Below the pieces are notes generated by a model. It saw only the letters and a list, made by a program, of their open reading frames with translations, had not been told where the DNA came from and did not search any database. A stretch of 32,000 nucleotides of DNA from the NCBI RefSeq assembly GCF_009936275.1, contig NZ_AP019797.1:1811890-1843889 (forward strand), in the 5' to 3' direction. The position numbers and the translations under genes were made by a program. Position 1 is the first letter of the stretch, and each line of letters starts with the position of its first letter. This DNA comes from Rhodothermus marinus (GTDB lineage Bacteria; Bacteroidota; Rhodothermia; Rhodothermales; Rhodothermaceae). Positions 1 to 17,524 of the stretch are shown here, one piece after another.

Positions 1-374
1 TCGAGTCGGTGGCCGCCCGCTTTCCGCGCGATTACGAGCGGCTGCTCCGGGAAATCGTACGCCGCGGCATCTCCGGCGTGGTATTCCTGAGCGGCGACCG
101 CCACCACACCGAGCTGCTGCGCTACGAGCCGGAAGGCTTCTATCCGCTCTACGAGATCACCACCTCGCCGCTGACGGCAGGCCCCTCGAACGTGGAAGAA
201 GATAATCCGCTGCGCGTCGAAGGCACCCTGCTACGCGAGCGCAACGTGGTGCTGCTCACCTTCTCCGGGCCACGCACCGACCGCGTGCTGACGATCACCG
301 CCTACGACGCCCAGGGCCAGGAACGCTGGCGCCACACGATCCGGGCCCGGGAGCTGCGACCGCCCCGACCGTGA
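1..374 (+). CDS. PhoD-like metallophosphatase, C-terminal fragment (5' end lies outside the window)
   Basis: The reading frame is open to the window edge. 'VVFLSGDRHHTEL' resembles the GD(x)H metallophosphatase motif of PhoD-family enzymes. Stop TGA at 372-374. Confidence 0.55.
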   Translation, partial: ESVAARFPRDYERLLREIVRRGISGVVFLSGDRHHTELLRYEPEGFYPLYEITTSPLTAGPSNVEEDNPLRVEGTLLRERNVVLLTFSGPRTDRVLTITAYDAQGQERWRHTIRARELRPPRP

Positions 375-3982: not shown

Positions 3983-4083
3983 GCTGCCCTCCCCGGATGG
4001 TTTGTTTGCGGGCACATGCGTGGGGTATGTTCTTTAAAGTATACAATATTTCCGACGCCGATGCGAACCGTTCCGACCGCCCC

Positions 4084-4797
4084 ATGACTGTTTTACCGGA
4101 TTCTTACAGGCAGACGCTTCGCCGTCTGGGAAGGGCCCTGCGGGCGCTGGTCTATCCATGGCACTGTCTGCACTGCGGCGCACGGGCCACGCACCCGACG
4201 CTTCCGCTCTGCACAGACTGTCTGGCCACGCTTCGTCGCGTGCCGCCCGGCGAGCCGCTTCGTCGCCTGCACCGGTTGCCGGAGGCCATCGGCTGCTTCC
4301 GCGCCGCCTACAGCCTGTGGTACGAAACCTCGGAGGGGCCCTTTCGCCCGCTGCACCATGCTCTGAAGTACGGCAACCGGCCGGTCTATGCGCAGCGGCT
4401 GGGACGGCTGCTGGGAGAGACATTCCGAGATGAGCTGCAGGAGATTGATGTAATCGTGCCCGTCCCGCTGCACCGCCGCCGTTTCCTGGAACGCGGCTAC
4501 AACCAGAGCGCCTGGCTGGCCCGAGGCGTCGGCGAAGTGCTGGGACGCTCGGTCGCCCCCGAACTGCTGGTGCGCGTGCGCGCCACGCGGAGCCAGACCC
4601 ACCTGGGTCGGGAAGCACGTCGCGCCAACGTGGCCCGCGCCTTTGCGGCGCCTTACCCGGAGCGTGTGGCCGGACGCCACGTGCTGCTGGTGGACGATCT
4701 GCTCACCACCGGCGCCACGGCCGCCTGGGCCGCCCAGGCCCTGCACGAAGCCCACGCTTCTGGCGTCACGCTGATCACGCTGGGCCTGGCGGTATGA
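4084..4797 (+). CDS. comF: ComF-family protein (phosphoribosyltransferase-like, ComFC type)
   Basis: N-terminal Cys pairs 'CLHC...CTDC' and a C-terminal PRTase motif 'VLLVDDLLTTGATA'. The start is uncertain: ATG 4084 was chosen because ATG 3997 would overlap the divergent gene. Confidence 0.8.
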   Translation: MTVLPDSYRQTLRRLGRALRALVYPWHCLHCGARATHPTLPLCTDCLATLRRVPPGEPLRRLHRLPEAIGCFRAAYSLWYETSEGPFRPLHHALKYGNRPVYAQRLGRLLGETFRDELQEIDVIVPVPLHRRRFLERGYNQSAWLARGVGEVLGRSVAPELLVRVRATRSQTHLGREARRANVARAFAAPYPERVAGRHVLLVDDLLTTGATAAWAAQALHEAHASGVTLITLGLAV

Positions 4798-5031: not shown

Positions 5032-8000
5032 TCAAGCAACCCACTCGCCACACAACACCTCCGTTTGACTCAAAACCAGCTCCACAGCCTGTTCCTGTTT
5101 GTCGGGCGGATAGCCATATTTGCGCAGGATACGCTTGACGAGTACGCGCAACTGGGCGCGGGCGCTCTCACGTCTATTCCAATCTACCGTTACACTTTTG
5201 CGTACGCTTTCGACCAGTACCCGGGCGATCTCCTTCAAGGTTTCGTCTCCGAGCACTTCTACAGCGCTTTCATTTACCGCCAGCGCATCATAAAACGCCA
5301 CTTCATCTTCGGACAGGCCGAGCTCTTCACCACGGCGCGTGGCTTCTCGTACCTGCCTGGCAATGGCGATCAGTTCTTCAATCACCTGCGCGGCTTCGAT
5401 GGCGCGATTGTGATACTTGTTCAGGGCCCGCTGGAGCAATTCCGAGAACGCCCGCGACTGCACCACGTTTTTGCGCAGGCGAACCTGGATCTCATCCTGA
5501 AGGAGTTTTTTCAGCGTCTCTACGGCCAGATTTTTCTGCGGCAAGCTGCGCACTTCTTCAAGAAACTCATCGGAAAGAATGGAAATGTCGGGCTTTTCCA
5601 ATCCCGCCGCCGCGAAGATATCCACTACCTCGCAGCCCGAGATCGCCCGGGAAACGAGCTGCCGAACCGCCGCTTCAACCTCCTCCGGGGCGCGCTCCGC
5701 CGAACTCACCGTAGCCTTGATCAGAGCCGCCCGAATCTCCTGAAATAGACCCACCTCGTCGCGAATAGCGAGGGCCTCCTCGTGCGGCACCGCCAAAGCA
5801 AACGCCTTGGACAGCGCCGCCACGGCCTGCAGATAGCGCTTCTTACCGTCCTCCCGCCCCAGAATGAAGTCCATGGCCTCGGCAATGCCCTGCAGGCGCT
5901 CATCGGGAGCAGCAGCCAGCAGGCGCCAATAGTCGAATCCGTGCAGGATGCCGCAGACGACCTCGTACTTCTCCTTCATCACTGCCACGGCTTCGGCCTG
6001 ATCGATGGCCGCCTTGCCCCGACCGCCGCTTTCAGCGTACACGGCAAGCGCCTTCTTGAGGGAATCGGCAATGCCCAGGTAGTCCACCACCAGCCCGCCG
6101 GGCTTGTCGCGAAAGACGCGGTTCACGCGGGCGATGGCCTGCATCAGATTGTGGCCGCTCATCGGCTTGTCGATGTACATCGTGTGCAGGGGCGGCGCAT
6201 CGAAGCCGGTGAGCCACATATCGCGCACAATGACCAGTTCCAGTTCATCGTTTGGGTCTTTGAAACGTCGGGCGAGAAAGTCCCGGCGTTCTTTGTTGCG
6301 GATGTGCGGCTGCCAATCGAGCGGATCCGAGGCAGAGCCGGTCATCACCACCTTGATCTTCCCCCTGGCGTCGTCGTCACTGTGCCACTCAGGACGCAGG
6401 GCCGTAATGGCCTTGTACATCTCCACGCAGATCCGACGGCTCATGCAGACGATCATGCCCTTGCCCAGCAGGGCTTCCCGCCGCCGTTCCCAATGCTGCA
6501 CGAGGTCCTCGGCCACAAGCCGGATGCGCTTCTCCGCTCCCACCAGAGCTTCCAGCGATGCCCATTTCGACTTCAAGCGTTCCCGGCGGACGACATCCTC
6601 TTCGGCTTCGGTAATCTCCTCGATTTCCTCATCGAGCCGCGGTTTCTCCGCCTCATCCAGTTCGATCTTCGCCAACCGGCTTTCGTAGTAGATCGGCACT
6701 GTAGCGCCGTCTTCCACTGCGCGTTGGATATCGTAGATGGAAATGTAATCGCCGAAGACTGCACGGGTGTTTTTGTCTTCCTTCTCGATGGGCGTCCCGG
6801 TAAAGCCAATGAACGATGCGTTGGGAAGCGCATCGCGCATGTGGCGGGCGAAACCGTCAATGAAGTCGTATTGACTGCGGTGGGCTTCGTCGGCGATGAC
6901 AACGATGTTGCTCCGCTCCGACAACGTCGGGTAGCGTTCCCCCCTGGTTTCGGGGAAGAATTTCTGGATGGTGGTGAAAATCACGCCGCCAGAGGCAACT
7001 TGGAGGAGTTCTTTCAGGTGCGCCCGGCTTTCGGCTTGCACGGGGGTTTGGCGCAAGATCTGACGGTTGGCGCTGAAGGTGGCAAAAAGCTGATTGTCCA
7101 AATCGTTGCGGTCGGTTAGCACCACGATGGTGGGGTTTTGCATGGCGGGGTGCCGGATGATTTTGCTGGCGTAGAAGACCATGGAAAGGCTTTTGCCCGA
7201 GCCCTGGGTATGCCAGATGACCCCGACGCGCCGGTCGCCGAACTTCGGGCGATATTCGGCTTTTGGTTCCCGGACCGCAAACGGATCAGCGGCCGCTGCT
7301 TCTTGAAAGCGAGCGTATAGCGTGCTGGCATCCGCTTCAATGCCACAGGCGACGAGTGTGGAAGCGAGCGCCTGATTGACGGCATGGTACTGGTGATAGC
7401 CGGCGGCCTTCTTGGCGATGCCTGCTGTGCCCTTGTCCACCTGTTCGAAGGTGATGAAGTTGAGCACGTAGTCGAGAAAGCGCCGACGCTCGAACATACC
7501 ACGGATCAGGGTCTTCATCCCCGGCTGCACCATACCTTCGCTTTGCTTGTCGTTTCCCGGCTCGCGGTAGAGGTCGGTCCCGTCGATGGTGCGCCAGGGC
7601 ATGAATCGGTCCCAACCGGACGTCAGCGTCCCGAAGCGGGCCTGCATGCCGTCGGAAATGACGAGGATCTCGTTGTAGGTAAAGAGCGAAGGAATCTCCT
7701 GCTTGTAGGTCTGCAACTGATTGAAGGCCGCCCGTAGCGTGGCCTGCACCGTGCCCGGGTCTTTCAACTCGATCACGACCAGCGGCAGACCGTTGACGAA
7801 GAGCACAATATCCGGCCGCCGCTCGTGCTTGTTCTCGATGACCGTGAACTGGTTGACTGCCAGCCAGTCGTTGTTGTCCAGGTTTTCGAGGTCGAGCAGC
7901 CACACCTTGCCGTGCTTCTCCCCTTCCGGTCCCATCCAGGAAACATCCACGCCGTCGGTGAGCATCTGATGGAAGCGGCGGTTGTTCTCGATGAGCGCCG

Positions 8001-8244
8001 GACTCTCGGGCGTGAGCACCTGGCGCAGGGCCTCTTCGATGGCCACGGCGGGCCTGTCCGGATTGATGCGCTCCAGCGCCTCCCGCAACCGCCCCTTGAG
8101 CACCACATCGCCGTAGGTTTCACGTTCCGGCCGTAAGCTCTCCGGGGCGAGGTCGGGGCCGTATGCGGTCTGCCAGCCCAGCGCCTGGAGCTCGTCCAGG
8201 GCCATTTGTTCAACGTCCTCTTCCACAAGATTACCCATGGCCAT
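5032..8244 (-). CDS. hsdR: Type I restriction enzyme R subunit
   Basis: N-terminal PD-(D/E)xK module '[19 protein letters not shown]'. SF2 motif I 'TQGSGKS' (GSGKS at 7189-7203), motif II 'DEAH' (6880-6891), and 'FTGTP'. C-terminal '[30 protein letters not shown]' (DUF3387-type tail). The start is set at ATG 8244 ([24 protein letters not shown], a typical HsdR N-terminus); the ORF-track start at 8322 is an upstream extension. Confidence 0.95.
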
Positions 8245-9385
8245 TCCCGTTTTCGATTTCACGGCGCAACCAATCCAGCAGCGGCTCAATCGCCTCCTCG
8301 TCCAGGCCATCGATAGCGGCAATCTGGATCAGGCGTTTCAACGTCACACGCACCGCCGCCCGTTTTGACTCGCGCCTGCTCCAATCCACGACTGCGAGGT
8401 CTTCCATTTCGTCAAGCAGCGTGTTGGCGAAACGGTGCACCTGCTCTTTCTGGTCGCCCCTGCCACCCAGCAGCCGATGGACGACGAACTCGTAAAGCAG
8501 ATGTACCTTCTCCCGAAACCGCCCCTGATAATCGTCAAGGAGCTGTTGTCTTACTGGCTCGGCGACGGGTTCCGACGGTACCGCTGGCTCTTCTTCTGAA
8601 ACAAATTCGCCCGATTCCCCTGCTTCCTCCTCGACCAATTCCGTTCTTTCCTCCTCCTCGGCTGGCATTGCCCCTTGTAACACATCAAGCACGCTTATGT
8701 AGGCCTGCCGGTCCAGGTGATACAGCAATTCGCTGGGCGGCACGCGCAGTTCGATGGCTTCCTCAGGCGTCTGCGTGCCTGCCTGAACCCGCACCACCAG
8801 CACGCCAGCCTCCTCATCTACCTCAGCCTCCAACGCACAGCCTGCATCGATGCGCTCGTTGAGATGCCGAAACCGCTCTGGCGGCTCTCTGGTGGTCCGA
8901 AGATTGGGCTCCCTGCCGTCGTAGGCGCTCAGAATGAGCGCAATGACCGAGTCGGCCGAGAGCAAATATACCCTCATATGCCGGTTCGCAATCGTGTCGA
9001 GAAACCCATCCCTGCCATGCGCGACGCTGCCGTCCTGATTGCGCAGCTCGTTCAGCCCCTCGACCAGTTTATTGTGCCCCGAGATCACCTTGCCCAGTGG
9101 TCCGACGCCGCGCTGGTTGCGCAATCCCAGGGCGTCCAATACGCAGGAAAGCAACTCCGTTGTCGTCGGCGTGGAGGAAGCCGGTCCCTCTCTCCCCAGC
9201 TCGTTGAGCACCGTCCAGCAGACGCACTCCAGGAAGGACTTGATCAACTCGATGACGCTGCTCCCTTCCCCCTCCCAGGCGCGGACGAGCTCCCGATAGT
9301 GTTGTTGAAGATTGGCGGCATCCGGCCAGCGCTCGACAGCGGCAGGATAGGCCGGGGCGATGTCGTCGAGACGGTTGGCACTCAT
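8231..9385 (-). CDS. 384-aa protein: Abi_C/HEPN-like N-terminal domain + poly-Glu linker + HsdR-C-terminus-like tail
   Basis: '[19 protein letters not shown] ... [17 protein letters not shown] ... [19 protein letters not shown]' follows the Abi_C (abortive infection C-terminus) pattern as I recall it. The C-terminal '[21 protein letters not shown]' matches the HsdR tail. Start ATG 9385 lies 2 nt after the PIN-gene stop (TAG 9388-9390). The 3' end overlaps the hsdR start by 14 nt. Confidence 0.75.
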
Positions 9386-9387
9386 GT

Positions 9388-9876
9388 CTATCTCTCCAGA
9401 ACGAATCGAGCTCGCTCGTGCCGCAACATTTCGAAGGGTGTCATCACCTTGATGCCCAGTCCCACACACACGTTCGGAATCTTGACCTTATTCCGCGTGT
9501 CGGCAGGCTTCTCATGCGTTACAACGACAAACCCACCGGCCAGCGCATGGGCGATAAGCCAGTAGTCCGCCACCTGGAAAAAAGCGTTCTTGGCAGCCGG
9601 GGTGTATCCGTTGCTGTTCACCCATTCGCTCACCGCACCCATCGCTTCGAGAACAGTCGGATCTGGTTTCAAGAAGAAGCCATCCCGCTGAGACGACACC
9701 CAAACCGCCAGTTCATCGTCGCCCGCCTCGAGTTCGTCCTTGACCTTCTCAATGCTGAACACCTTGCCGGCCTGGTTGCTTTCGACCAGCCAGTCCCAGA
9801 AGGCTGGGCAGAAGTCCATGCCGTAATGCAGGTTCTTGGCCGCTATGAAGACGTTGGCATCCAGCAGGTATCTCAT
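9388..9876 (-). CDS. DUF4411-type PIN-like nuclease (putative toxin)
   Basis: 162 aa. 'MRYLLDANVFIAAKNLHYGMDFCPAFWDWL' and 'KIPNVCVGLGIKVMTPFEML' match the DUF4411 pattern I recall. The start overlaps the ImmA stop (ATGA at 9873-9876). Confidence 0.75.
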   Translation of the reverse strand: MRYLLDANVFIAAKNLHYGMDFCPAFWDWLVESNQAGKVFSIEKVKDELEAGDDELAVWVSSQRDGFFLKPDPTVLEAMGAVSEWVNSNGYTPAAKNAFFQVADYWLIAHALAGGFVVVTHEKPADTRNKVKIPNVCVGLGIKVMTPFEMLRHERARFVLER

Positions 9877-11024
9877 GCCGGAATCTCCAGACGTTGCGCC
9901 AGCTCATAAAAGGTCCGGCTTTTTCGCACGCCGAGAAGGCGAAACGCCTCGGTAAAGGGCGTTTGTCCCTCCAACGCGCTCACGATCACCGCCCTGGCGA
10001 ATCGTTTGCCCACATGAGCGCCCAGGGTGTTGTAAAAATCCCCGCCCTTTCCTCCGGGCGAAAGCTGCTTCAACCGCTGTAACTCTTGTTGCCATGCGCT
10101 GTCCAGTGTTTCCCAATTGATCCACCCGGCATCGAACAGACGGCGCAGGATCACCAGGGTGCTGACCTTGAAGCGCCGCGCCAGCCGCTCCAGCGTCTCG
10201 GGTAAAGGTTCGCCTGCCACCAGGTTCGCTCGCACGGCTTCAAGCGGAGCAAGGAATTCCGCCGCCACCGCATTGCACCAGCGCTCGGTCCGCTCGTCGG
10301 GAAGAACGCGCGCGTCGCTATCGCTTACGCCAGATTGTCCCAACCAGAGGTGCGCCAGTTCATGGGCCAGGGTGAACATCTGTCCCGCCTTGCTGTCCCT
10401 GCCATTGATGAACACCAGCGGGGCCAGGTCGTCGGCCAGCGCGAATCCGCGAAACTCGGAGACATCGAGCGGGCGGTGGGTATTGCTGCCGACAATGCCG
10501 CTGACCATCACCAGCACCCCGGCATCTTCGGCCAAGCCGATGAACTGTCGCAGCGCTTCAGTCCATGTCGTCATTCGGGAACGGGCTTCTATATCGAACC
10601 CGAGCTGTTCGCGCATCCGAGCGGCCACCTCCGCCGGGGCATCCTGAAGCGTCGCCGAGCCCACAAAGGCAACCGGCGGTTCGCCATATAGCCGGGCAAA
10701 CTCCCGGTACCAGGCCTGCCGCTGCTGACAGATGTAGATCGTTTCCAGCAGGTCGGCGCTGGGGGAGCTATGGCGTGCCTTCGACGTGGTGCGAAAATCG
10801 GGGATCGGCAATGTCTCTTCCGGCGGTTCGGCCAGAAAGAAATAACCGATAGGGGTATGGGTGGCGCGGGCGAAGTCCTCGAGCTGCCTGAGCGTGGGTT
10901 GCCCCTGCCCTTCTAACCAGTCTTCGAGCTTCTTGAAACGACGAGACAACTCCTCCGGCATGCGGCCAGAGCGCCGCATGGCCCAATACAGGAGTTCGGG
11001 TTTAACAGGCACCCGCAAGGTCAT
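9873..11024 (-). CDS. XRE-type HTH + ImmA/IrrE (COG2856, DUF955/M78) zinc metallopeptidase
   Basis: 383 aa. The N-terminal 'LEDWLEGQGQPTLRQLEDFARATHTPIGYFFL' is HTH-like. HEXXH motif 'HELAH' at 10350-10364 within 'FTLAHELAHLWLG'. Confidence 0.85.
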   Translation of the reverse strand: MTLRVPVKPELLYWAMRRSGRMPEELSRRFKKLEDWLEGQGQPTLRQLEDFARATHTPIGYFFLAEPPEETLPIPDFRTTSKARHSSPSADLLETIYICQQRQAWYREFARLYGEPPVAFVGSATLQDAPAEVAARMREQLGFDIEARSRMTTWTEALRQFIGLAEDAGVLVMVSGIVGSNTHRPLDVSEFRGFALADDLAPLVFINGRDSKAGQMFTLAHELAHLWLGQSGVSDSDARVLPDERTERWCNAVAAEFLAPLEAVRANLVAGEPLPETLERLARRFKVSTLVILRRLFDAGWINWETLDSAWQQELQRLKQLSPGGKGGDFYNTLGAHVGKRFARAVIVSALEGQTPFTEAFRLLGVRKSRTFYELAQRLEIPA

Positions 11025-11053
11025 ACCGCATCCTCCTGAATCTTCTCTTCATC
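11021..11053 (-). repeat. Remnant copy of the hsdS 3' end (..EEKIQEDAV-stop overlapping the immA ATG)
   Basis: 30 of 33 nt are identical to 12628-12660 (tcataccgcatcctcc[t/a]gaatcttctc..). Both copies end in the same ATGA stop/start overlap. Confidence 0.8.
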
Positions 11054-11141
11054 TGGCACGATGTCGGAGCCGTACCTCACGGCCCAGCATATGGACTCGA
11101 GCCAGACACAGACAGCGGCTTTGGTGATAGATTCAGCGAAA

Positions 11142-12059
11142 TCAGCCCTTATCATTGATCCGTCTCCTGTTCCCTGCCTTAAAACGCTCGGGCTGCCCTT
11201 TGACAAACTCCAGCTCATACCGGCGACGGTCAAGAAGCTCCAGAAACGCCAGCTCGTGGCCTTCGGAGACCTTGAGTTTACCGTCTAATTCTTCGACTTC
11301 GACACCATTCTGCTCGCAGAGAGCCTTGAGCAAGGATTTGTCGACATTCTTGGTTAGCTCTTGACTCCGGATCGAGGCAAGGTAGCGGGCTGCCCTCGTA
11401 TGCTTTTTGGCATATTCCTCGATAGGGGCTAGTTCTACGAATGGAAGATCACTTTGGATCGCTTTGATGTTCTTCGGCACCGCATCCAGAATGGCCTGCT
11501 GGAGCTTGCCTGCGAACTCAAATCCACTGGGCCGCAGGATGTAGACGTTCTTCGAGTCAGCGAGAAGGTCGAAGTCAATATCCAGCTTGAACACACGGTC
11601 TTCAATCAGCTTGAGTGAGTCCGAGACTAATCGAATCAGGCGGCTCTTCAAAATCCCCTTGAACTGCGTAGCTCGCCGAAGGGCGGTCAAACGCCGATGC
11701 TTGTTATCCGTGAGCTGGGCGAAGTAACAGAATATGTTCGAAGGATCATTCAACGCACCGCTATTGGTGGGCAGATTGGCAGCTTCGTGCAACGTTTTTA
11801 CTGCGGCTGCCATCTCGTGGTCTAGTGGCAGATAGAGGCACTCTCTACTCTCGTATTTCTCGGACGGCTCGTACTCCCTCGGCCCGTCCTCGCAATTGTT
11901 CAATGCATTCCACGTTGCCTGCGCCATCTCGCGAAGCGCTCTCTGCACGCCCACATCTACTGGTACAACGACGAACGTTTGGTGGTCGCCGGCATCAATG
12001 CCCACGCCAAATGTGGTCACGGTCACGTTCTCGAAATCAAAGTCTATGGTTAACCTCAT
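11142..12059 (-). CDS. 305-aa cytoplasmic protein, KwaB-like (DUF4868-type) candidate
   Basis: Size and position (immediately after, and ATGA-overlapping, a 4-TM gene) fit Kiwa KwaB. 'FKLDIDFDLLADSKNVYILRPSGFEF' resembles the DUF4868 core as I remember it. Not verified by any search. Confidence 0.5.
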   Translation of the reverse strand: MRLTIDFDFENVTVTTFGVGIDAGDHQTFVVVPVDVGVQRALREMAQATWNALNNCEDGPREYEPSEKYESRECLYLPLDHEMAAAVKTLHEAANLPTNSGALNDPSNIFCYFAQLTDNKHRRLTALRRATQFKGILKSRLIRLVSDSLKLIEDRVFKLDIDFDLLADSKNVYILRPSGFEFAGKLQQAILDAVPKNIKAIQSDLPFVELAPIEEYAKKHTRAARYLASIRSQELTKNVDKSLLKALCEQNGVEVEELDGKLKVSEGHELAFLELLDRRRYELEFVKGQPERFKAGNRRRINDKG

Positions 12060-12631
12060 GTCTCAGGCTCTAAATAAACTGTATCGCTCAAGCGATAGGC
12101 TATAAGCTTTTCACCAGAAGCGAGACTCACGCGGCGCGTGATTAGAACCAAGGGCACCCTGCCGGTAAGTGGATTGCCGTCATCCGGCGGATAGACCGTA
12201 AACACTCGGTAGCCCCGTGCAGCAAAGACCAGATTCATGTAGTGCAGGTTTAGGTGCCAGAATAGGAATACAACAAACGCCAAAGCGGCAACAGTAGCCC
12301 CAAGGTCACGCCAGTTCCCAAGATCTTCCGAGTAGAACGGCAGCAGCATCGCGAACAGGTAAACGAGAATGTGGTCGCGATGGTCGTCAGAAGTGCCAAC
12401 AATCAGCTCGCGTTTGTCGTTTTCCTTCTTCGCTGTTGCAATGCGCAGCCATAGAAAGGCGTTAGGAACAACTACCATCAGCGCACAACACCCGACGAAC
12501 CAAGGATCGGGGAGAAGACTGTTTCCACGGATAGCCCATAGGATAAAAAGCGGCGAGATGCTGCTGAGCACCATCAGGAGTCGCGCCGCCTTGAGTCCCT
12601 CGCGATGAACGGTAACAGGACGCATGTTCAT
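12056..12631 (-). CDS. 191-aa four-TM membrane protein, KwaA-like candidate
   Basis: Four hydrophobic segments: 'LLMVLSSISPLFILWAI', 'FVGCCALMVVVPNAFLWL', 'ILVYLFAMLLPFY', 'ATVAALAFVVFLFWHL'. A soluble tail of about 55 aa follows. The start overlaps the hsdS stop (ATGA at 12628-12631). Confidence 0.5.
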   Translation of the reverse strand: MNMRPVTVHREGLKAARLLMVLSSISPLFILWAIRGNSLLPDPWFVGCCALMVVVPNAFLWLRIATAKKENDKRELIVGTSDDHRDHILVYLFAMLLPFYSEDLGNWRDLGATVAALAFVVFLFWHLNLHYMNLVFAARGYRVFTVYPPDDGNPLTGRVPLVLITRRVSLASGEKLIAYRLSDTVYLEPET

Positions 12632-13896
12632 ACCGCATCCTCCAGAATCTTCTCCACATCCTTCACCCGCAACTCGCCAGAGATCAGTTTGGGCAGCAGC
12701 GTGTCGCGCAGGGCAGCAAGGGTGCGGGATTCCACTACATAATGATCCTGCAAAGCTCTCATCTTTGATACAAATTCAGAAAGTTTAGAAGCTAAGTTGC
12801 TTCCTGGCCAGAGAATTGGTAAGCACTCAATATCGCTATTTGCTACAAAAGGCTGTGCTGCCCCTTTTTTGATTACGTCAATGTTTGCATTGCGTAGCGC
12901 AAGATATAACCATTCTCCAAGTTTGCGTTCATGAACTCTAACCAAAGAAGCATTGTTGTTTATCCAAGCTTCGCCGATATGTCGGAAAAACTGCCCGCAA
13001 TATGCTCCCACTCTTCCAACAGTTATGACAAAACCAGTTGCGTTGCTAATAGTTGTGTAGCCCATAATACCCGCACCTCCAAAAACGGGCACGGGACCAT
13101 GATCTTTGATGTACTTTTTGGAAAGCTGCTGGCCACCTTTTAGAGCAGCAAACTCCCTGACCTGTTTTATCTCCCACCCCTCCGGAATCGGCCCCAGTTC
13201 CGACTCCACGAAGCGGGCGGGGAAGAGGCGTAGGATGTCTTCGGGCAGGCCAAGGGCGTCGGGGTTGTCGCGGTAGTGGGCGGCGCGTTTGGCGAACTTT
13301 TCGGGGATGGGGTTTCCGGCGCGCAGGGCGTTGACCACCACCGGGTCGAAGTCCACGAACCAGGACTTGAAGAGCGCCTGGGCCATGGCCTCCAGGGTCT
13401 CGTTCATCCGCCGGTTCAGCTCGATCTTGTCATCCAAGGTGCCGAGGATGTGGGCAATGGCGCGTTGTTCGGGAAGGGGTAAATAAGGCCTCTTAAATCT
13501 TTCTACATGTTCCCATTTCGCCCGCGGCATTCGAGTACCTTCGGAACCTTTGCTGGCAAAGTCGATGAAATCGTGAGCAGCCATCCAATAGAAAAGATAA
13601 TTCTGATCAAAACCCTCTTTTGCACGCACTACCCAGATATCCGTAGAGCAAATGCCATCAAATGGTGCACGTATTACCTTACGGAAATATGGACGCAGTT
13701 TTCCAAAAAGTATGTCGCCTTTTCTAAATCGGAATTTTGCACTACTGACATCGGAAGCATATCCCCAACCAGCAAGTCGTAATGTGCCCTGCTCAATGTG
13801 TTCAAGACCAATATAGGGCATTTTTCCAGCTTCTTCAGGCTGGACAACATCCCGCACAAGTTGGGCCACATCACGAAATGCGACCTCGCTTCCCAT
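12628..13896 (-). CDS. hsdS: Type I R-M specificity subunit with two dissimilar target-recognition domains
   Basis: 422 aa. 'PYIGLEHIEQGTL...FRKGDILFGKLRPYFRKVIRAPFDGICSTDIWVV' is a classic Methylase_S pattern. Central conserved region 'LPEQRAIAHILGTLDDKIELNRRMNETLEAMAQALFKSWFVDFDPV'. Distal 'LAALRDTLLPKLISGELRV'. Confidence 0.92.
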   Translation of the reverse strand: MGSEVAFRDVAQLVRDVVQPEEAGKMPYIGLEHIEQGTLRLAGWGYASDVSSAKFRFRKGDILFGKLRPYFRKVIRAPFDGICSTDIWVVRAKEGFDQNYLFYWMAAHDFIDFASKGSEGTRMPRAKWEHVERFKRPYLPLPEQRAIAHILGTLDDKIELNRRMNETLEAMAQALFKSWFVDFDPVVVNALRAGNPIPEKFAKRAAHYRDNPDALGLPEDILRLFPARFVESELGPIPEGWEIKQVREFAALKGGQQLSKKYIKDHGPVPVFGGAGIMGYTTISNATGFVITVGRVGAYCGQFFRHIGEAWINNNASLVRVHERKLGEWLYLALRNANIDVIKKGAAQPFVANSDIECLPILWPGSNLASKLSEFVSKMRALQDHYVVESRTLAALRDTLLPKLISGELRVKDVEKILEDAV

Positions 13897-13907
13897 AGAT
13901 CACCCCT

Positions 13908-15962
13908 TCATGGATTCAAGAAGGCCCGATTTATCTCTTCAAACAGATTACTGGCTATCCTGAAAACATCAGTGGGGATTTTTTCTGAACCATCCATAAT
14001 CCAGTCCCGTAATACCGCAGCGGGTCGCCACTTCTCGAACCGACCAAGTCCCTTGTACTCAAAGAGCGCCTTCACTTTGTTTACAACGCCATCGGTTGTC
14101 TCTATGTCCTCGTCAAACGTTAGCTGGTCGATATTGTAGGCTTCCCTTACTGCTTCCAGGTAAACCTCTTCAGGAAAAATATCTTCGAGCTCTGCATATG
14201 GTTTTTCTGGCAAAAAATCCCCAATGAATAGGCAACGTCCTGTTTCACCTGCAAATAAGTTTTCGGTGAGCTTCTTGCCTTCCTTGCGACCTGGTTCGTC
14301 ACCATCCAAGAGGGCTACAACCTCGACGTCATGGCCAATAAGCATACTAGCCAGGGGAAATAATTTGCTCAAACCAGCTGATGGAACAATAACCACATCA
14401 TCCCGAAGGGCTGACTCACCGCGCTGTCGAAGCAACTGGTCAAACGCCTTGAGAATCCAGTAGTCGGTAATCCCTTCAACGATTAGTTGGCGCTTGCTGA
14501 TAAAAAGAGATTGAACAAGCTGATACCCTAAGCCTGCCTGAAGTGGGAAAAGAGCATCTTTGTCACGAGGCCAAATGTCTTCTGATACTTTGGTCGTTCC
14601 ATCTTCTGCCTCATAGACAATACGGACTCGTTCCAAGTGGTCTGCATCTATCATAAAAGGGGAGTGGGTTGTGTACATTGTCTGATTTTCTTGGGAAAGC
14701 TTCTCAAGGAACTTGACCACCTTTGCTTGGGCTGTCCCATGCATGTGCAAGCCGGGCTCGTCCAGAAGGAGAATTGCCTTTTGATGTGCCCCTTTCGCTT
14801 CAACAAGGAAAACGGTAAAGAATGAGAAGAAATACTGCATACCCAAGCTGCGCTGGTCCAGTTCGATCTCGCTTGGATCAAGGTCATCAGAAACCCAAAT
14901 ACGGAAAAAGTCCCCGTCTGCTTGATAGCGGAACTTGTGGCGGCGCTGCTCCCACCAGTCTTGGAATTTGGTAGTCATGGCATTTGACGCTGAAGATAGT
15001 TTTATAGCGCGCTCATCAACGTAACGGCGGATCTTTTCAATAGTCTGGGAATCCATTTGCTGTCCTGGCTGGTGCTTCTTCCCAAGTGCTGCTAATTCTT
15101 CCACATCGAGACCCACGTGCTCAAATAAGCATCGCGTTGTGCGAACGCGGGGCGCGGTAGGATTTTGGTTGAGCTGCTGCACAAAAGTTGGGAGATGAAC
15201 GGCGCTGTCAATTACGTCGTAGCGGTCAAAGTAGATGAACTTTGGAAGATTGTTTTCAACCCATTGCTTGGCTTGCGCCAGTTCATAACCAAAGGAAGCG
15301 CGCTCAAGCAAGCTCTGGGCTTTTTTGCTTATATCCTGGAGAAGCTTTTTTTGCCATTGCTCGTTTGATTGCGTAGCGATGGTGTGTACGAGTCTCTCAA
15401 CTTCGGCTTTCGGTACAACTTCATCCGGCCTTGTTGAGGATTGTTGATTTTCAAGCTGATAGAGGGTCTGAAGGAGGGTATTCTTAATTGCACCGAGAGC
15501 ATCGCCCTTACCTTCGGGGGCGGTCAGATCACTCAGCGTTTGCCGAATCTCTCCAATGGCAGTTTTGAATTCAGTACGAGTCAAGACAGAAGTAGGAGGA
15601 GCGGGTTCAAATTCTACTGACAATTCCCAAGAGTAATGGCGCGTACATGTCACCTGCTTGACGTCCGCAAGTGCAGAGCATATTTCGGCAAGCTTCTTGC
15701 GATCGATGTCGTCAAGCTCAAACCTGCCGCTTGCTACAGGCCAATCTTGCTTTTGGAATTCGTCGGTATAACGCCGTCGTGGAAATTCTTTAAGTCCATC
15801 GTATCTTTCACCGTCGGATGGGTTGAGCTTGGAGAGGCCTCGAAACAACGCTGACTTACCTGCTTCATTTTTTCCCACGAAGCAGGTGAGATCACGGACA
15901 CTAACCCATCCTGTATCTTGAATCTTCTTGTAGTTTTGGACGCGAAAAGCTACAAGTTTCAT
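13908..15962 (-). CDS. OLD-family nuclease (ABC-type ATPase + C-terminal TOPRIM)
   Basis: 684 aa. Walker A 'GKNEAGKS' (15852-15875), ABC-signature-like 'SLGMQ', Walker B 'ILLLDEPG', 'TTHSP'. TOPRIM Glu in 'LIVEGITD' (E at 14475-14477) and 'DGD' (14298-14306). The start overlaps the hsdM stop (ATGA at 15959-15962). Confidence 0.8.
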
Positions 15963-17524
15963 AATTCATCCTCCTTCGTATAGAATCCAAGCACCTCCAG
16001 GTTTTTCTTGATTTCCGCCTCCAGCCGGCGGGCTTCCTCGAACTGCTCATAGAGCGTGGCGGTCAGTTCGGCCATCTTCTCTTCAAAGGGAATGCCGTCG
16101 TCCTCTCGCTCCTCCACGCCCACGTAGCGTCCCGGCGTGAGCACGTAGTCGCGCTGGCGGATATCCTCGATGGTGGCCGACTTCCACCAGCCGGGTTTGT
16201 CCTGGTAACCCTCGCCCTTCTTCCAGGCGTGGTACACGTCTGCGATCTGGCGGATTTCCTCCTGGGTCAGCTCCCGGTGCACACGGTCCACCAGGCGGCC
16301 CATGCGCCGGGCGTCGATGAAGAGGGTTTCGCCGGTGCGGTCGCGATAGCCTCGCTTCGGGTCGGCCTTCTTATTGCGGGTGAGGAACCAGAGCGAGACC
16401 GGAATCTGCGTGGTGTAGAAGAGCTGTCCCGGCAGGGCGACGATGCAATCCACCAGGTCGTCCTCGATGATGCCCTTGCGAATCTCGAATTCGGCCTTCG
16501 TGGATGTAGAGAGCGAGCCGTTGGCCATCACGAACCCGGCAATGCCGTTGGGGGCCAGGTGATAGATGAAGTGCTGGATCCAGGCGTAGTTGGCGTTGCT
16601 CGCAGGGGGTACGCCATATTTCCAGCGCGGGTCGTCCGTGAGCCGCTCCCCGCCCCAGTCGCTCATGTTGAAGGGGGGATTGGCCAGGATGTAGTCGGCC
16701 TTCAGGTCCTTGTGCAGGTCGTTGTGGAAGGTGTCGGCATGGTGCGGGCCCAGGTCGGCGTCGATGCGGCGGATGGCCAGGTTCATCTTGCAGAGCCGCC
16801 AGGTGGTGGGGTTCGACTCCTGGCCATAGATGGCGATGTCGCCGAGCTTCCCCCCGTGGGCTTCCACGAACTTCTCCGACTGCACGAACATGCCACCCGA
16901 GCCGCAACAGGGGTCGTACACGCGCCCGCGGTACGGCTCGATCATCTCAACCAGAAGTTGCACGACGCACTGGGGCGTGTAGTACTCGCCGCCGCGCTTG
17001 CCCTCCTTCTCGGCAAATTTGCCCAGAAAATATTCGTACACCCGCCCAAGCGGGTCTCGGACGCCGTATTCCTGCGCCTTCAGGTTGATATCGCCGACAA
17101 GCTTCACCAGCTCACCCAGGCGCACCTTGTCCAACGTCGGGCGGGCGTAGTCCTTGGGCAACACCCCCTTGAGCGACGGGTTCTCCCGCTCGATGGCCGC
17201 CATCGCCTCGTCGATGACCTGGCCGATGGTGGGCTGTGGCGCAGCCGCCTGAATTTTCTCCCAGCGCGCCTCGGGCGGCACCCAGAAGACGTTGGCGGCC
17301 AGGTACTCGTCGCGATCCTCGGGGTCGGTGAACTCGGTGTCCTGCTTGGCCTTGAGCTCCTGGTACTTTTCCTCGAAGGCGTCGGAAATGTATTTGAGGA
17401 AAATCAGCCCCAGCACCACGTGCTTGTACTCGGCGGCGTCCATATGGCCGCGTAACTTGTCGGCCATCTCCCAGAGCTTGTTCTCAAAGCCCAGATTGGC
17501 GCCGTTTGTTTTATTCGTATCCAT
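15959..17524 (-). CDS. hsdM: Type I R-M N6-adenine DNA methyltransferase subunit
   Basis: 521 aa. HsdM_N pattern '[34 protein letters not shown]', AdoMet motif '[12 protein letters not shown]', catalytic 'NPPF' (16670-16681). Confidence 0.95.

Follow-up and report, generated by a model that had tools for sequence, protein, structure and literature searches.

The ImmA–DUF4411 pair and the adjacent Abi_C gene with an HsdR-like tail are probably separate units within one Type I restriction-modification operon of Rhodothermus marinus

We analyzed a 32,000-nucleotide (nt) stretch of Rhodothermus marinus DNA (contig NZ_AP019797.1, positions 1,811,890 to 1,843,889; hereafter the window), in which three consecutive genes at 8231–11024 encode an ImmA-like metallopeptidase, a DUF4411 PIN-like protein, and a protein with an Abi_C (HEPN-type) module and a C-terminal tail resembling the end of HsdR (AbiC/tail). 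Our best explanation, held with moderate confidence, is that this interval comprises two separable defense-type units within one Type I restriction-modification (R-M) transcription unit. One is a mobile ImmA–DUF4411 pair and the other is an AbiC/tail accessory gene, and they would be adjacent because cassettes insert into the hsdS–hsdR cargo slot, not because they form a three-part machine. A sequence-only reading of the window had proposed that the three genes form one functional unit and an undescribed system. The tight operon packing that suggested this is real. However, such packing is no proof of a system in a Type I R-M operon, whose hsdS–hsdR interval is a cargo slot that collects independent cassettes. 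Nor is the content undescribed as a whole, since the pair was predicted in 2017 (PMC5499597), a member of the RosmerTA class has been validated (PMC10440598), and solo AbiJ proteins linked to R-M were noted in 2013 (PMC3710099). For the HsdR-derived tail on an AbiJ-type HEPN protein, we found no prior description.

Homologs of AbiC/tail were collected as 51 loci in species-representative genomes of more than 15 phyla, retrieved with a 41-homolog alignment (38–93% identity). They come from Gammaproteobacteria, Desulfobulbia, Spirochaetaceae, Ignavibacteriales, Cyanobium/Synechococcus, Acidobacteriota, Planctomycetota, Chloroflexia, Verrucomicrobiota, Deinococcota, Zixibacteria, Eremiobacterota and others. 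All 51 lie within Type I R-M operons of a single HsdR family, so the evolutionary link to Type I R-M that had been read from the window alone is real. The usual order is hsdM–hsdS–AbiC/tail–(variable insert)–hsdR. The gap between hsdS and AbiC/tail is at most 30 nt in 41/48 loci, mostly a 4- or 1-nt overlap with the hsdS stop codon. At the other end, hsdR follows directly in 13/38 loci, and the others have 0.4–4.8 kb of cargo in between. The ImmA–DUF4411 pair accompanies AbiC/tail in only two of the 51 loci. In one of them (L006) it is adjacent; in the other (L001) it sits between hsdM and hsdS, so that hsdS separates it from AbiC/tail.

The view from the DUF4411 side is similar. Our sample consisted of 83 loci (80 from metagenomes and 3 from IMG/VR), of which 76 include upstream sequence, and an ImmA ortholog (E-values 1e-80 to 1e-250) stands directly upstream of DUF4411 in every one of those 76. 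AbiC/tail is present in 8 of the 83 (L052–L054, L058, L061, L071, L073 and L097), all of them among the nearest relatives of the window's operon, and the ImmA–PIN pair occurs without AbiC/tail in operons of the same HsdR family (L059, L060, L137, L139 and L140). Because the three families do not co-occur beyond one operon lineage, the claim that they form a single functional unit is unsupported.

The pair also travels independently of this operon type. Other Type I families (HsdM match at an E-value of about 1e-30) carry it as well, in the hsdM–hsdS interval of some operons and in the hsdS–hsdR interval of others. About half of the sampled copies lie inside Type I R-M operons, and hsd genes were absent from 8 of the 15 ImmA–PIN loci with long flanks. 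On plasmids, it appears as a stand-alone pair within rows of toxin-antitoxin modules, following ParS/RES and MazE/VapC on pCADAB1 and TacAT on Enterobacter plasmids, where it is named 'XRE regulator'/DUF4411. AbiC/tail had no match in 72,556 plasmids. Both families of the pair are very abundant, with at least about 8000 homologous proteins each and hundreds of clusters at roughly 60–70% identity across phyla. Taken together, the strict DUF4411–ImmA pairing, the rarity of AbiC/tail beside it, and the presence of the pair in other Type I families and alone on plasmids indicate that ImmA–DUF4411 is an autonomous cassette, most likely a RosmerTA-like toxin-antitoxin or abortive-infection module. 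It is a highly conserved, predicted toxin-antitoxin/defense module that is often found in Type I operons. A phage origin of this DUF4411 copy was rejected on the near-absence of the family from phage records: it was found in 2 of 50,697 cultured phage genome records and on only three IMG/VR contigs, at about 40% identity.

Both proteins of the pair retain intact catalytic residues. DUF4411 (PF14367) matches residues 3–158 of the PIN protein over model positions 1–159 of 159. Among 63 unique homologs (38–99% identity), conservation is 95% or higher at the acidic residues D6, D47/E48, D104 and E122 of the PIN protein, and these four conserved acidic positions agree with the published description of the family (PMC5499597). 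Across 50 orthologs of the ImmA-like protein, H221, E222, H225, E247 and E256 show either complete conservation or conservation of at least 95%, and the three HEXXH residues among them (H221, E222, H225) are invariant. The layout of this protein is an XRE-like helix-turn-helix (HTH), a zinc peptidase of the ImmA/IrrE/CapP type and a helical C-terminal domain. Fourteen PADLOC RmrA profiles match it over residues 15–313 (best E-value 5e-16), the PADLOC capP profile matches the peptidase core (3e-14), and PHROG 2439, annotated 'transcriptional regulator', matches at 5e-46. PDC-M69B and PD-Lambda-2_B were considered as identities for this protein and ruled out, since they gave partial-domain matches only.

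The XRE-type HTH was the one domain call from the window that received indirect support only. Pfam gave no HTH match in the N-terminus even at E-values up to 10. On the other side, the RmrA and PHROG profile alignments begin at residue 5–15, one ortholog has a faint HTH_3 match, and orthologs on RefSeq plasmids bear the name 'XRE family transcriptional regulator'. The AlphaFold2 (AF2) model (mean predicted local distance difference test score, pLDDT, 83.8; predicted TM-score 0.82) places N-terminal helices at residues 9–19, 23–27, 33–37, 45–55 and 59–63. Local Foldseek comparison of this region with the XRE proteins 3omt and 3bs3 gave probabilities of 0.97–0.99 and root-mean-square deviations of 1.6–1.9 Å, with E-values near 1. 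We therefore consider the five-helix region a probable XRE-type HTH. For the full model, the best Foldseek matches were CapP (7t5t, E-value 1.5e-4) and then IrrE/PprI, including one complex with single-stranded DNA (ssDNA). Foldseek also matched a mycobacterial transcriptional regulator (6cz6 and related entries), which we take to be an XRE-DUF955 type protein.

Two published descriptions come close to the pair. Matelska et al. (2017) predicted a three-component toxin-antitoxin system in which a fused HTH-DUF955 (COG2856) gene lies upstream of DUF4411.1, and also noted PIN-like genes coupled to Type I R-M subunits (PMC5499597). This is the same pair, with the same HEXXH motif and four acidic PIN residues. 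Their system is a prediction, though, and was described without the strength of Type I embedding or the strict 1:1 pairing seen here (76/76). Ernits et al. (2023) described ImmA-domain antitoxins (RosmerTA) as a hub with swappable toxins, PIN-like domains included, and validated one RosmerTA as anti-phage (PMC10440598). The pair in the window resembles RosmerTA in being a two-gene module whose ImmA protein has the RmrA layout (HTH plus M78 zinc peptidase, about 360–400 amino acids), and in belonging to an ImmA node whose RmrA partners are swappable toxins and which is linked to PIN-like domains (PMC10440598). It differs in that the DUF4411 partner matches no PADLOC RmrT model and the similarity to RmrA is moderate. 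The literature search found no experimental work, on toxicity or on phage, with an ImmA–DUF4411 pair, in agreement with the sequence-only reading.

In the mechanism that we propose for this first unit (9388–11024), the toxin would be the PIN protein, acting as a Mg-dependent nuclease and probably on RNA. The peptidase protein would silence it by direct neutralization and/or by HTH-mediated repression, until an infection or DNA-damage cue releases it. That cue may be ssDNA, as for the structural relatives CapP and IrrE/PprI, and the pair may act against phage in this way. We favor control at the protein level because the upstream intergenic region is often absent, the pairing is strictly 1:1, and the plasmid neighbors are toxin-antitoxin modules.

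The main rival explanation for the pair, doubtful but deserving serious attention, is that the ImmA-like protein is not an antitoxin but a fused version of a CapH/CapP- or ImmR/ImmA-type damage-responsive transcription switch. Its HTH would repress the PIN gene (and here also AbiC/tail and hsdR), and ssDNA-activated self-cleavage by the peptidase would lead to induction. The CapP and IrrE/PprI structural matches, with their ssDNA complex, the capP profile match and the PHROG annotation as a transcriptional regulator all suit such a switch. Matelska et al. proposed the same mechanism (PMC5499597), and the CapP mechanism, including stimulation of CapP by ssDNA, has been described (10.64898/2026.05.16.725639). 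CapH/CapP, ImmR/ImmA and IrrE(PprI)/DdrO do share the metallopeptidase fold and an HTH partner with our protein. However, they are two-protein switches on separate operons and are not paired 1:1 with a nuclease, whereas the HTH and peptidase in the window form one polypeptide whose gene often has no promoter region of its own. ImmA is co-directional with hsdS or other genes, and many loci show it overlapping the upstream stop codon, be it that of hsdS or of another gene, which leaves no intergenic space for a promoter or operator. The DUF4411 gene follows in 76/76 loci whatever lies downstream, so the partner of ImmA is the PIN protein and not a variable regulon. The toxin-antitoxin company that the pair keeps on plasmids and the antitoxin role of the ImmA-domain node in tested RosmerTA (PMC10440598) also argue against a switch.

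Turning to the second unit, the Pfam Abi_C match of the AbiC/tail protein scores 39.3 bits (gathering cut-off 24), and the same HEPN region aligns with the C-terminal HEPN part of the PADLOC AbiJ profile (E-value 2.8e-4). Among the 41 homologs, residues R115, H123, G124 and D126 are invariant. The AF2 model (mean pLDDT 76.9) divides the protein into the four regions listed in Table 1, with pLDDT below 50 over residues 240–279 of the linker. The linker carries a mean net charge of -9 over about 51 residues in those homologs. Mean column identity is 0.69 for the N-terminal module of about 240 residues, 0.51 for the tail and 0.42 for the linker. Pfam, NCBIfam and PADLOC detected no ATPase domain in the protein. 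At E-values up to 0.001, the family comprises 523 cluster representatives at 50% identity.

The tail had been called an R-M docking tail. Its homology to HsdR is borne out, and docking through it is a hypothesis. BLASTP of the tail against the window's own HsdR gave 16/41 identical residues (39%, E-value 3e-6). In an hhalign comparison, 29 tails matched 29 cognate HsdR C-termini with a probability of 96.6% over 73 columns (E-value 5.5e-10). The common core of tail and HsdR is DW-x2-R-x(7-9)-h-[RK]-h-x2-K[RK]. Pfam T1RH-like_C (PF11867, 329 positions) matched the tail only over positions 261–304 (E-value 8e-6), at 22.5–25.9 bits, below its cut-off of 26.8. By these comparisons, the tail appears as a fragment-sized paralog of the last ~75 residues of HsdR and not as a whole T1RH-like_C domain. 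HsdR itself matches EcoR124I in the motor domain only, so no solved structure covers the tail.

A similar tail seems to occur in another protein family. The PADLOC PDC-S15 profile PDLC04934 matches AbiC/tail residues 306–373 at profile positions 340–408 of 416 (E-value 2.9e-5), and PDLC04934 and a second PDC-S15 profile, PDLC04927, match the C-terminus of the window's HsdR (1.8e-10 and 1.1e-4). The N-terminal ~300 residues of the PDC-S15 profile found no match in AbiC/tail. AbiC/tail was thus ruled out as a PDC-S15 member, the match being partial and confined to the tail. Because the profiles match both the AbiC tail and the HsdR C-terminus, PDC-S15 looks like another family of about 416 amino acids that ends in an HsdR-like tail; the two apparently have the tail in common and nothing else that matches. 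The supplements of Payne et al. 2024 held no useful description of PDC-S15 or PDC-M69.

More distant relatives of AbiC/tail show that its C-terminus can vary. P0316 (251 amino acids, L144:351–1106) is a relative of the N-terminal module without any tail, and P0360 (347 amino acids, L143:4868–5911) is a relative with a different, beta-rich C-terminus. Each lies in the hsdS–hsdR slot of an operon with the same HsdR family, which implies that the C-terminal module is interchangeable and that the R-M linkage resides at least partly in the N-terminal module or in the operon. P0357 and P0375 are further distant relatives of the N-terminal module with unrelated C-termini. No Pfam match was found for the alternative C-termini of P0357, P0360 and P0375.

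In the prrA–D locus, prrC lies between hsdS and hsdR, and AbiC/tail resembles PrrC (EcoprrI, Type IC) in being a HEPN-type protein encoded between those two genes. As an RNase that the R-M complex keeps latent, PrrC serves as the model for R-M guards (PMC3710099; PMC12707154), and the former text describes prrC as embedded in a Type IC locus. The differences are considerable. AbiC/tail has no ABC-ATPase, its HEPN module is N-terminal and of the AbiJ/Abi_C type instead of the PrrC family, it has an HsdR-like tail that PrrC lacks, and its R-M family is the one with a T1RH-like_C HsdR. A second comparison is with lactococcal AbiJ and its solo relatives. Anantharaman et al. (2013; PMC3710099) report that solo AbiJ-HEPN proteins are frequent in R-M operons, propose a PrrC-like logic for them, and describe fusions of R-M-linked HEPN domains to nucleases, helicases and ATPases. 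AbiC/tail shares with these proteins the Abi_C domain, the R-M operon setting and the lack of the AbiJ N-terminal domains; it differs in its extra alpha/beta domain, acidic linker and HsdR-derived tail, none of which we found mentioned in the passages of that paper that were consulted.

We propose that this second unit (8231–9385) encodes a solo AbiJ-type HEPN protein that would serve as a latent RNase backing up restriction, in the manner of a PrrC-like guard. The R-M complex would keep this RNase inactive until inhibition or overloading of restriction sets it free. The HsdR-paralogous tail and flexible acidic linker would tether it to HsdM2S at or next to the docking site of HsdR. If the tail does dock to the methyltransferase core, it would provide a structural way into the coupling between R-M guard effectors and the R-M enzyme.

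A more elaborate version of this idea, which we put forward as speculative and on balance unlikely, makes the AbiJ-type HEPN protein a fourth R-M subunit. The tail would occupy the HsdR docking site on HsdM2S, with the linker in or near the path of the DNA, and its displacement, either by an anti-restriction protein or by HsdR loading on unmodified DNA, would free the RNase. Tails borrowed from HsdR, as PDC-S15 also seems to have, would then be a widely usable means of connecting different effectors with Type I enzymes. ImmA–PIN might in addition sense the ssDNA of failed restriction, as CapP and PprI do, making the three genes in this lineage successive layers around one enzyme.

Several lines of evidence describe the slot in which these units lie. 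Between AbiC/tail (or hsdS) and hsdR, the 51 loci hold RhuM genes (PADLOC PDC-S05; the commonest cargo between AbiC/tail and hsdR, in 5 loci) and DUF3800 genes (4 loci). Other cargo includes GmrSD, Mrr, Schlafen/HATPase_c_4, a Cap15-like receptor domain, deaminases, Fic, another HTH+M78 protein and insertion sequence (IS) elements. Kiwa pairs closely related to the one in the window sit between AbiC/tail and hsdR in L019 and L024. A cargo slot of this kind agrees with the 'guilt-by-embedding' of Payne et al. (10.1101/2024.01.29.577857) and with TgvAB in Vibrio cholerae (PMC11411939). One gammaproteobacterial operon, in which an OLD-like gene precedes ImmA–PIN, has a RhuM-Fic fusion between PIN and hsdR (L137:7799–8791), where AbiC/tail lies in the window.

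Comparison with the close relatives L052–L054 shows what has changed in the window. The hsdM block (18476–15987) is 96–99% identical and the ImmA–PIN–AbiC–hsdR block (11060–4856) is 93–95% identical, and OLD and Kiwa are absent from the relatives. GC content is 48–53% across OLD, hsdS and Kiwa (11001–16000), against about 60% in the rest of the operon and 63–68% in the flanks. Such a composition would fit a recent replacement of this block, with a new hsdS allele as part of it. A direct repeat of about 40 nt (12660–12621 and 11060–11021) encloses Kiwa and consists of the hsdS 3' end, a ribosome-binding site (GGAGG) and ATGA. Between Kiwa and ImmA, a 44-amino-acid open reading frame (ORF) fuses the HsdR N-terminus to the HsdS C-terminus, as seen in translations and in DNA alignments with hsdS–ImmA junctions, and this scar supplies the ribosome-binding site and ATGA junction for ImmA. 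Like chimeras stand at cassette borders elsewhere (L014:6742–6981, L054:7654–7893, L071:4474–4650, and also in L073/L097), with an HsdR part of about 25–50 amino acids and an HsdS part of about 10–25, joined at short motifs common to the hsdR 5' end and the hsdS 3' end (RLR[DE]xL, VPD). With the strain comparison, these scars show that exchange of cassettes takes place at the hsdS 3' end. The alignments fit a scheme in which cargo is excised as circles by recombination between the hsdS 3' end and the hsdR 5' end and is then re-integrated in other operons. The hsdR 5'::hsdS 3' chimeras thus suggest a concrete route by which defense cassettes may move between R-M operons.

Such mobility raises the question of whether both units are mere passengers in a recombination hotspot, with no functional interaction with R-M. 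The diversity of the slot cargo (RhuM, DUF3800, GmrSD, Mrr, Fic, deaminases, Kiwa, IS elements), the recombination scars and direct repeats at cassette borders, and the occurrence of ImmA–PIN away from R-M genes would all be expected of passengers. But in 51/51 loci AbiC/tail lies with one Type I HsdR family; unlike ordinary cargo, it includes a stretch of that family's HsdR and shows coupling to hsdS. The passenger explanation is plausible for ImmA–PIN and poor for AbiC/tail, and as an account of both we think it improbable.

It is also conceivable, though distinctly improbable in our estimate, that AbiC/tail modulates R-M assembly instead of acting as a guard. As a mimic of the HsdR C-terminus, it would compete for the methyltransferase core and so temper or delay restriction, for example during establishment in a new host. 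In EcoKI and EcoR124I, the C-terminal region of HsdR mediates assembly with the methyltransferase. This reading draws on the homology of the tail to the end of HsdR, on the translation of AbiC/tail together with hsdM and hsdS, before hsdR, in 41/48 loci, and on the acidic linker, which could be a DNA mimic. However, the invariance of R115, H123, G124 and D126 and the better conservation of the N-terminal module (0.69 against 0.51 for the tail) point to an enzymatic or binding function beyond the tail, and tail-less variants hold the same position.

Finally, it is very improbable that ImmA, PIN and AbiC/tail are one R-M-coupled defense system in which a protease regulator controls two nuclease effectors, one of them docked: the three genes do join by overlaps or near-overlaps (ATGA, a 2-nt gap and 8–14 nt), and the order hsdS–ImmA–PIN–AbiC–hsdR does recur in the R. 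marinus-like L052–L054, in L058 and in L006, a gammaproteobacterial metagenome-assembled genome whose AbiC is only 61% identical, but co-occurrence is limited to one operon lineage (2/51 and 8/83 loci), hsdS stands between the pair and AbiC/tail in L001, each part is abundant without the other even within the same HsdR family, and tight spacing is general to the cassettes of these operons, Kiwa and OLD included.

Some observations weigh against the two-unit interpretation or against parts of it. The three genes are contiguous in a lineage that reaches down to about 61% AbiC identity, and functional cross-talk is possible locally. No PADLOC model, RmrT included, matches the DUF4411 protein at E-values up to 0.01; as the RosmerTA toxin slot is known to be variable (PMC10440598), this lowers formal membership in RosmerTA and not the functional analogy. 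The overlap of ImmA with hsdS fits a protein-level antitoxin better than an autorepressor and leaves the HTH unaccounted for. In AbiC/tail, the motif spacing is R-x7-H, one residue beyond the canonical HEPN Rx4-6H. Foldseek of the AF2 model against the PDB gave no match at E-values up to 0.001, a search for which a multi-domain model with a disordered linker is uninformative, and the family profile found nothing among PDB sequences at E-values up to 1; the assignment of a HEPN fold therefore comes from sequence profiles only. With P0316 and P0360 in the same slot, the genomic association does not depend on the tail, and function may not either. Tail identity is 0.211 to the cognate HsdR and 0.206 to other HsdRs, with a permutation p of 0.03 on the BLOSUM score only. 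This test is weak since HsdR tails are too conserved (65% pairwise identity). That tails are not closer to their own HsdR suggests an old paralogous segment and not recent gene conversion.

Within the window, the three genes are part of a long co-directional minus-strand array, hsdM–OLD–hsdS–KwaA–KwaB–[scar ORF]–ImmA–DUF4411–AbiC/tail–hsdR (Table 1). They are real conserved genes and not chance ORFs, with hundreds to thousands of homologs each. The coordinates and overlaps first assigned to them agree with the sequence and with gene calls, the HELAH motif is exactly where it had been placed, and Pfam confirms the M78 peptidase, DUF4411 and Abi_C calls. At the junctions, ATGA (9873–9876) is common to the ImmA stop and the PIN start. 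The PIN gene ends in TAG; AC and the AbiC/tail ATG at 9385 come next, leaving a 2-nt gap. This ATG is preferred over an upstream GTG at 9469 on the basis of the conserved N-terminus of 40 homologs and an independent gene call. The 3' end of AbiC/tail overlaps hsdR by 8 or 14 nt, depending on whether hsdR starts at ATG 8238 or 8244; the independent gene call gives an HsdR product of 1068 amino acids.

Table 1. Features of the minus-strand Type I R-M operon in the window, with the predicted regions of the AbiC/tail protein
Feature	Position	Strand	Basis
hsdM	15959-17524	-	N6_Mtase E 3e-111 + HsdM_N
OLD-like AAA-ATPase/TOPRIM, 684 aa	13908-15962	-	PADLOC Old E 4e-26; TOPRIM match weak
hsdS	12628-13896	-	Methylase_S
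KwaA, 191 aa	12056-12631	-	PADLOC E 2e-95
KwaB, 305 aa	11142-12059	-	PADLOC E 1e-132
44-aa scar ORF	11021-11155	-	Independent gene call; junction alignments and translations
ImmA-like gene, 383 aa	9873-11024	-	Peptidase_M78 E 9e-17
N-terminal five-helix region of ImmA-like protein, residues 1-65 (probable XRE-type HTH)	10830-11024	-	AF2/Foldseek
HELAH zinc-binding motif (HEXXH, residues 221-225)	10350-10364	-	Read from sequence
DUF4411 PIN-like nuclease, putative toxin/effector, 162 aa	9388-9876	-	DUF4411 E 3e-57, full length
AbiC/tail gene, 384 aa	8231-9385	-	Abi_C E 7e-10
Putative HEPN catalytic motif R115-N-x6-H123-G	9017-9043	-	Invariant residues in homologs
Acidic disordered linker, residues 239-290	8516-8671	-	pLDDT and charge
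Four-helix HsdR-like tail (T1RH-like_C)	8234-8515	-	BLASTP, hhalign
hsdR, T1RH-like_C family	5032-8238	-	HSDR_N, SWI2_SNF2, T1R_D3-like, T1RH-like_C (E 5e-137)
AbiC/tail protein: helical module including the Abi_C match	residues 1-155		AF2
AbiC/tail protein: small alpha/beta domain	residues 169-238		AF2
AbiC/tail protein: disordered linker, acidic in nearly all homologs, poorly conserved	residues ~239-290		AF2
AbiC/tail protein: four-helix tail	residues 291-376		AF2

KwaA and KwaB constitute a complete Kiwa system between hsdS and ImmA, and the OLD gene, which overlaps the stop codon of hsdM, separates hsdM from hsdS. Consensus scans for promoters and terminators over the operon gave counts at chance level, with a sigma-70-type consensus that may not suit this host. 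The same 15 kb is present unchanged in two R. marinus read assemblies, and a Rhodothermus marinus protein matches the DUF4411 protein at 100% identity. Housekeeping-type genes border the island, namely a ComF-like phosphoribosyltransferase on the plus strand (3997–4797) and, beyond 17600, an ABC ATPase and a family-B DNA polymerase.

Two further arrays were seen among the related loci. In L071, L073 and L097, which are near-identical (e.g., L071:6156–9447), AbiC/tail and hsdR are broken into several ORFs and ImmA and PIN are still intact, except for a slightly shortened PIN ORF. It seems that the R-M part decays there while the ImmA–PIN pair persists. In L140 (927–5856), hsdS is fused to a nucleotidyltransferase domain (Polbeta/NTP_transf_2), with NTase_sub_bind genes upstream. 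This block is tandemly duplicated, with a truncated M78 peptidase gene between the copies, and may be a phase-variable or shuffling hsdS array with a HEPN/MNT-like toxin-antitoxin module.

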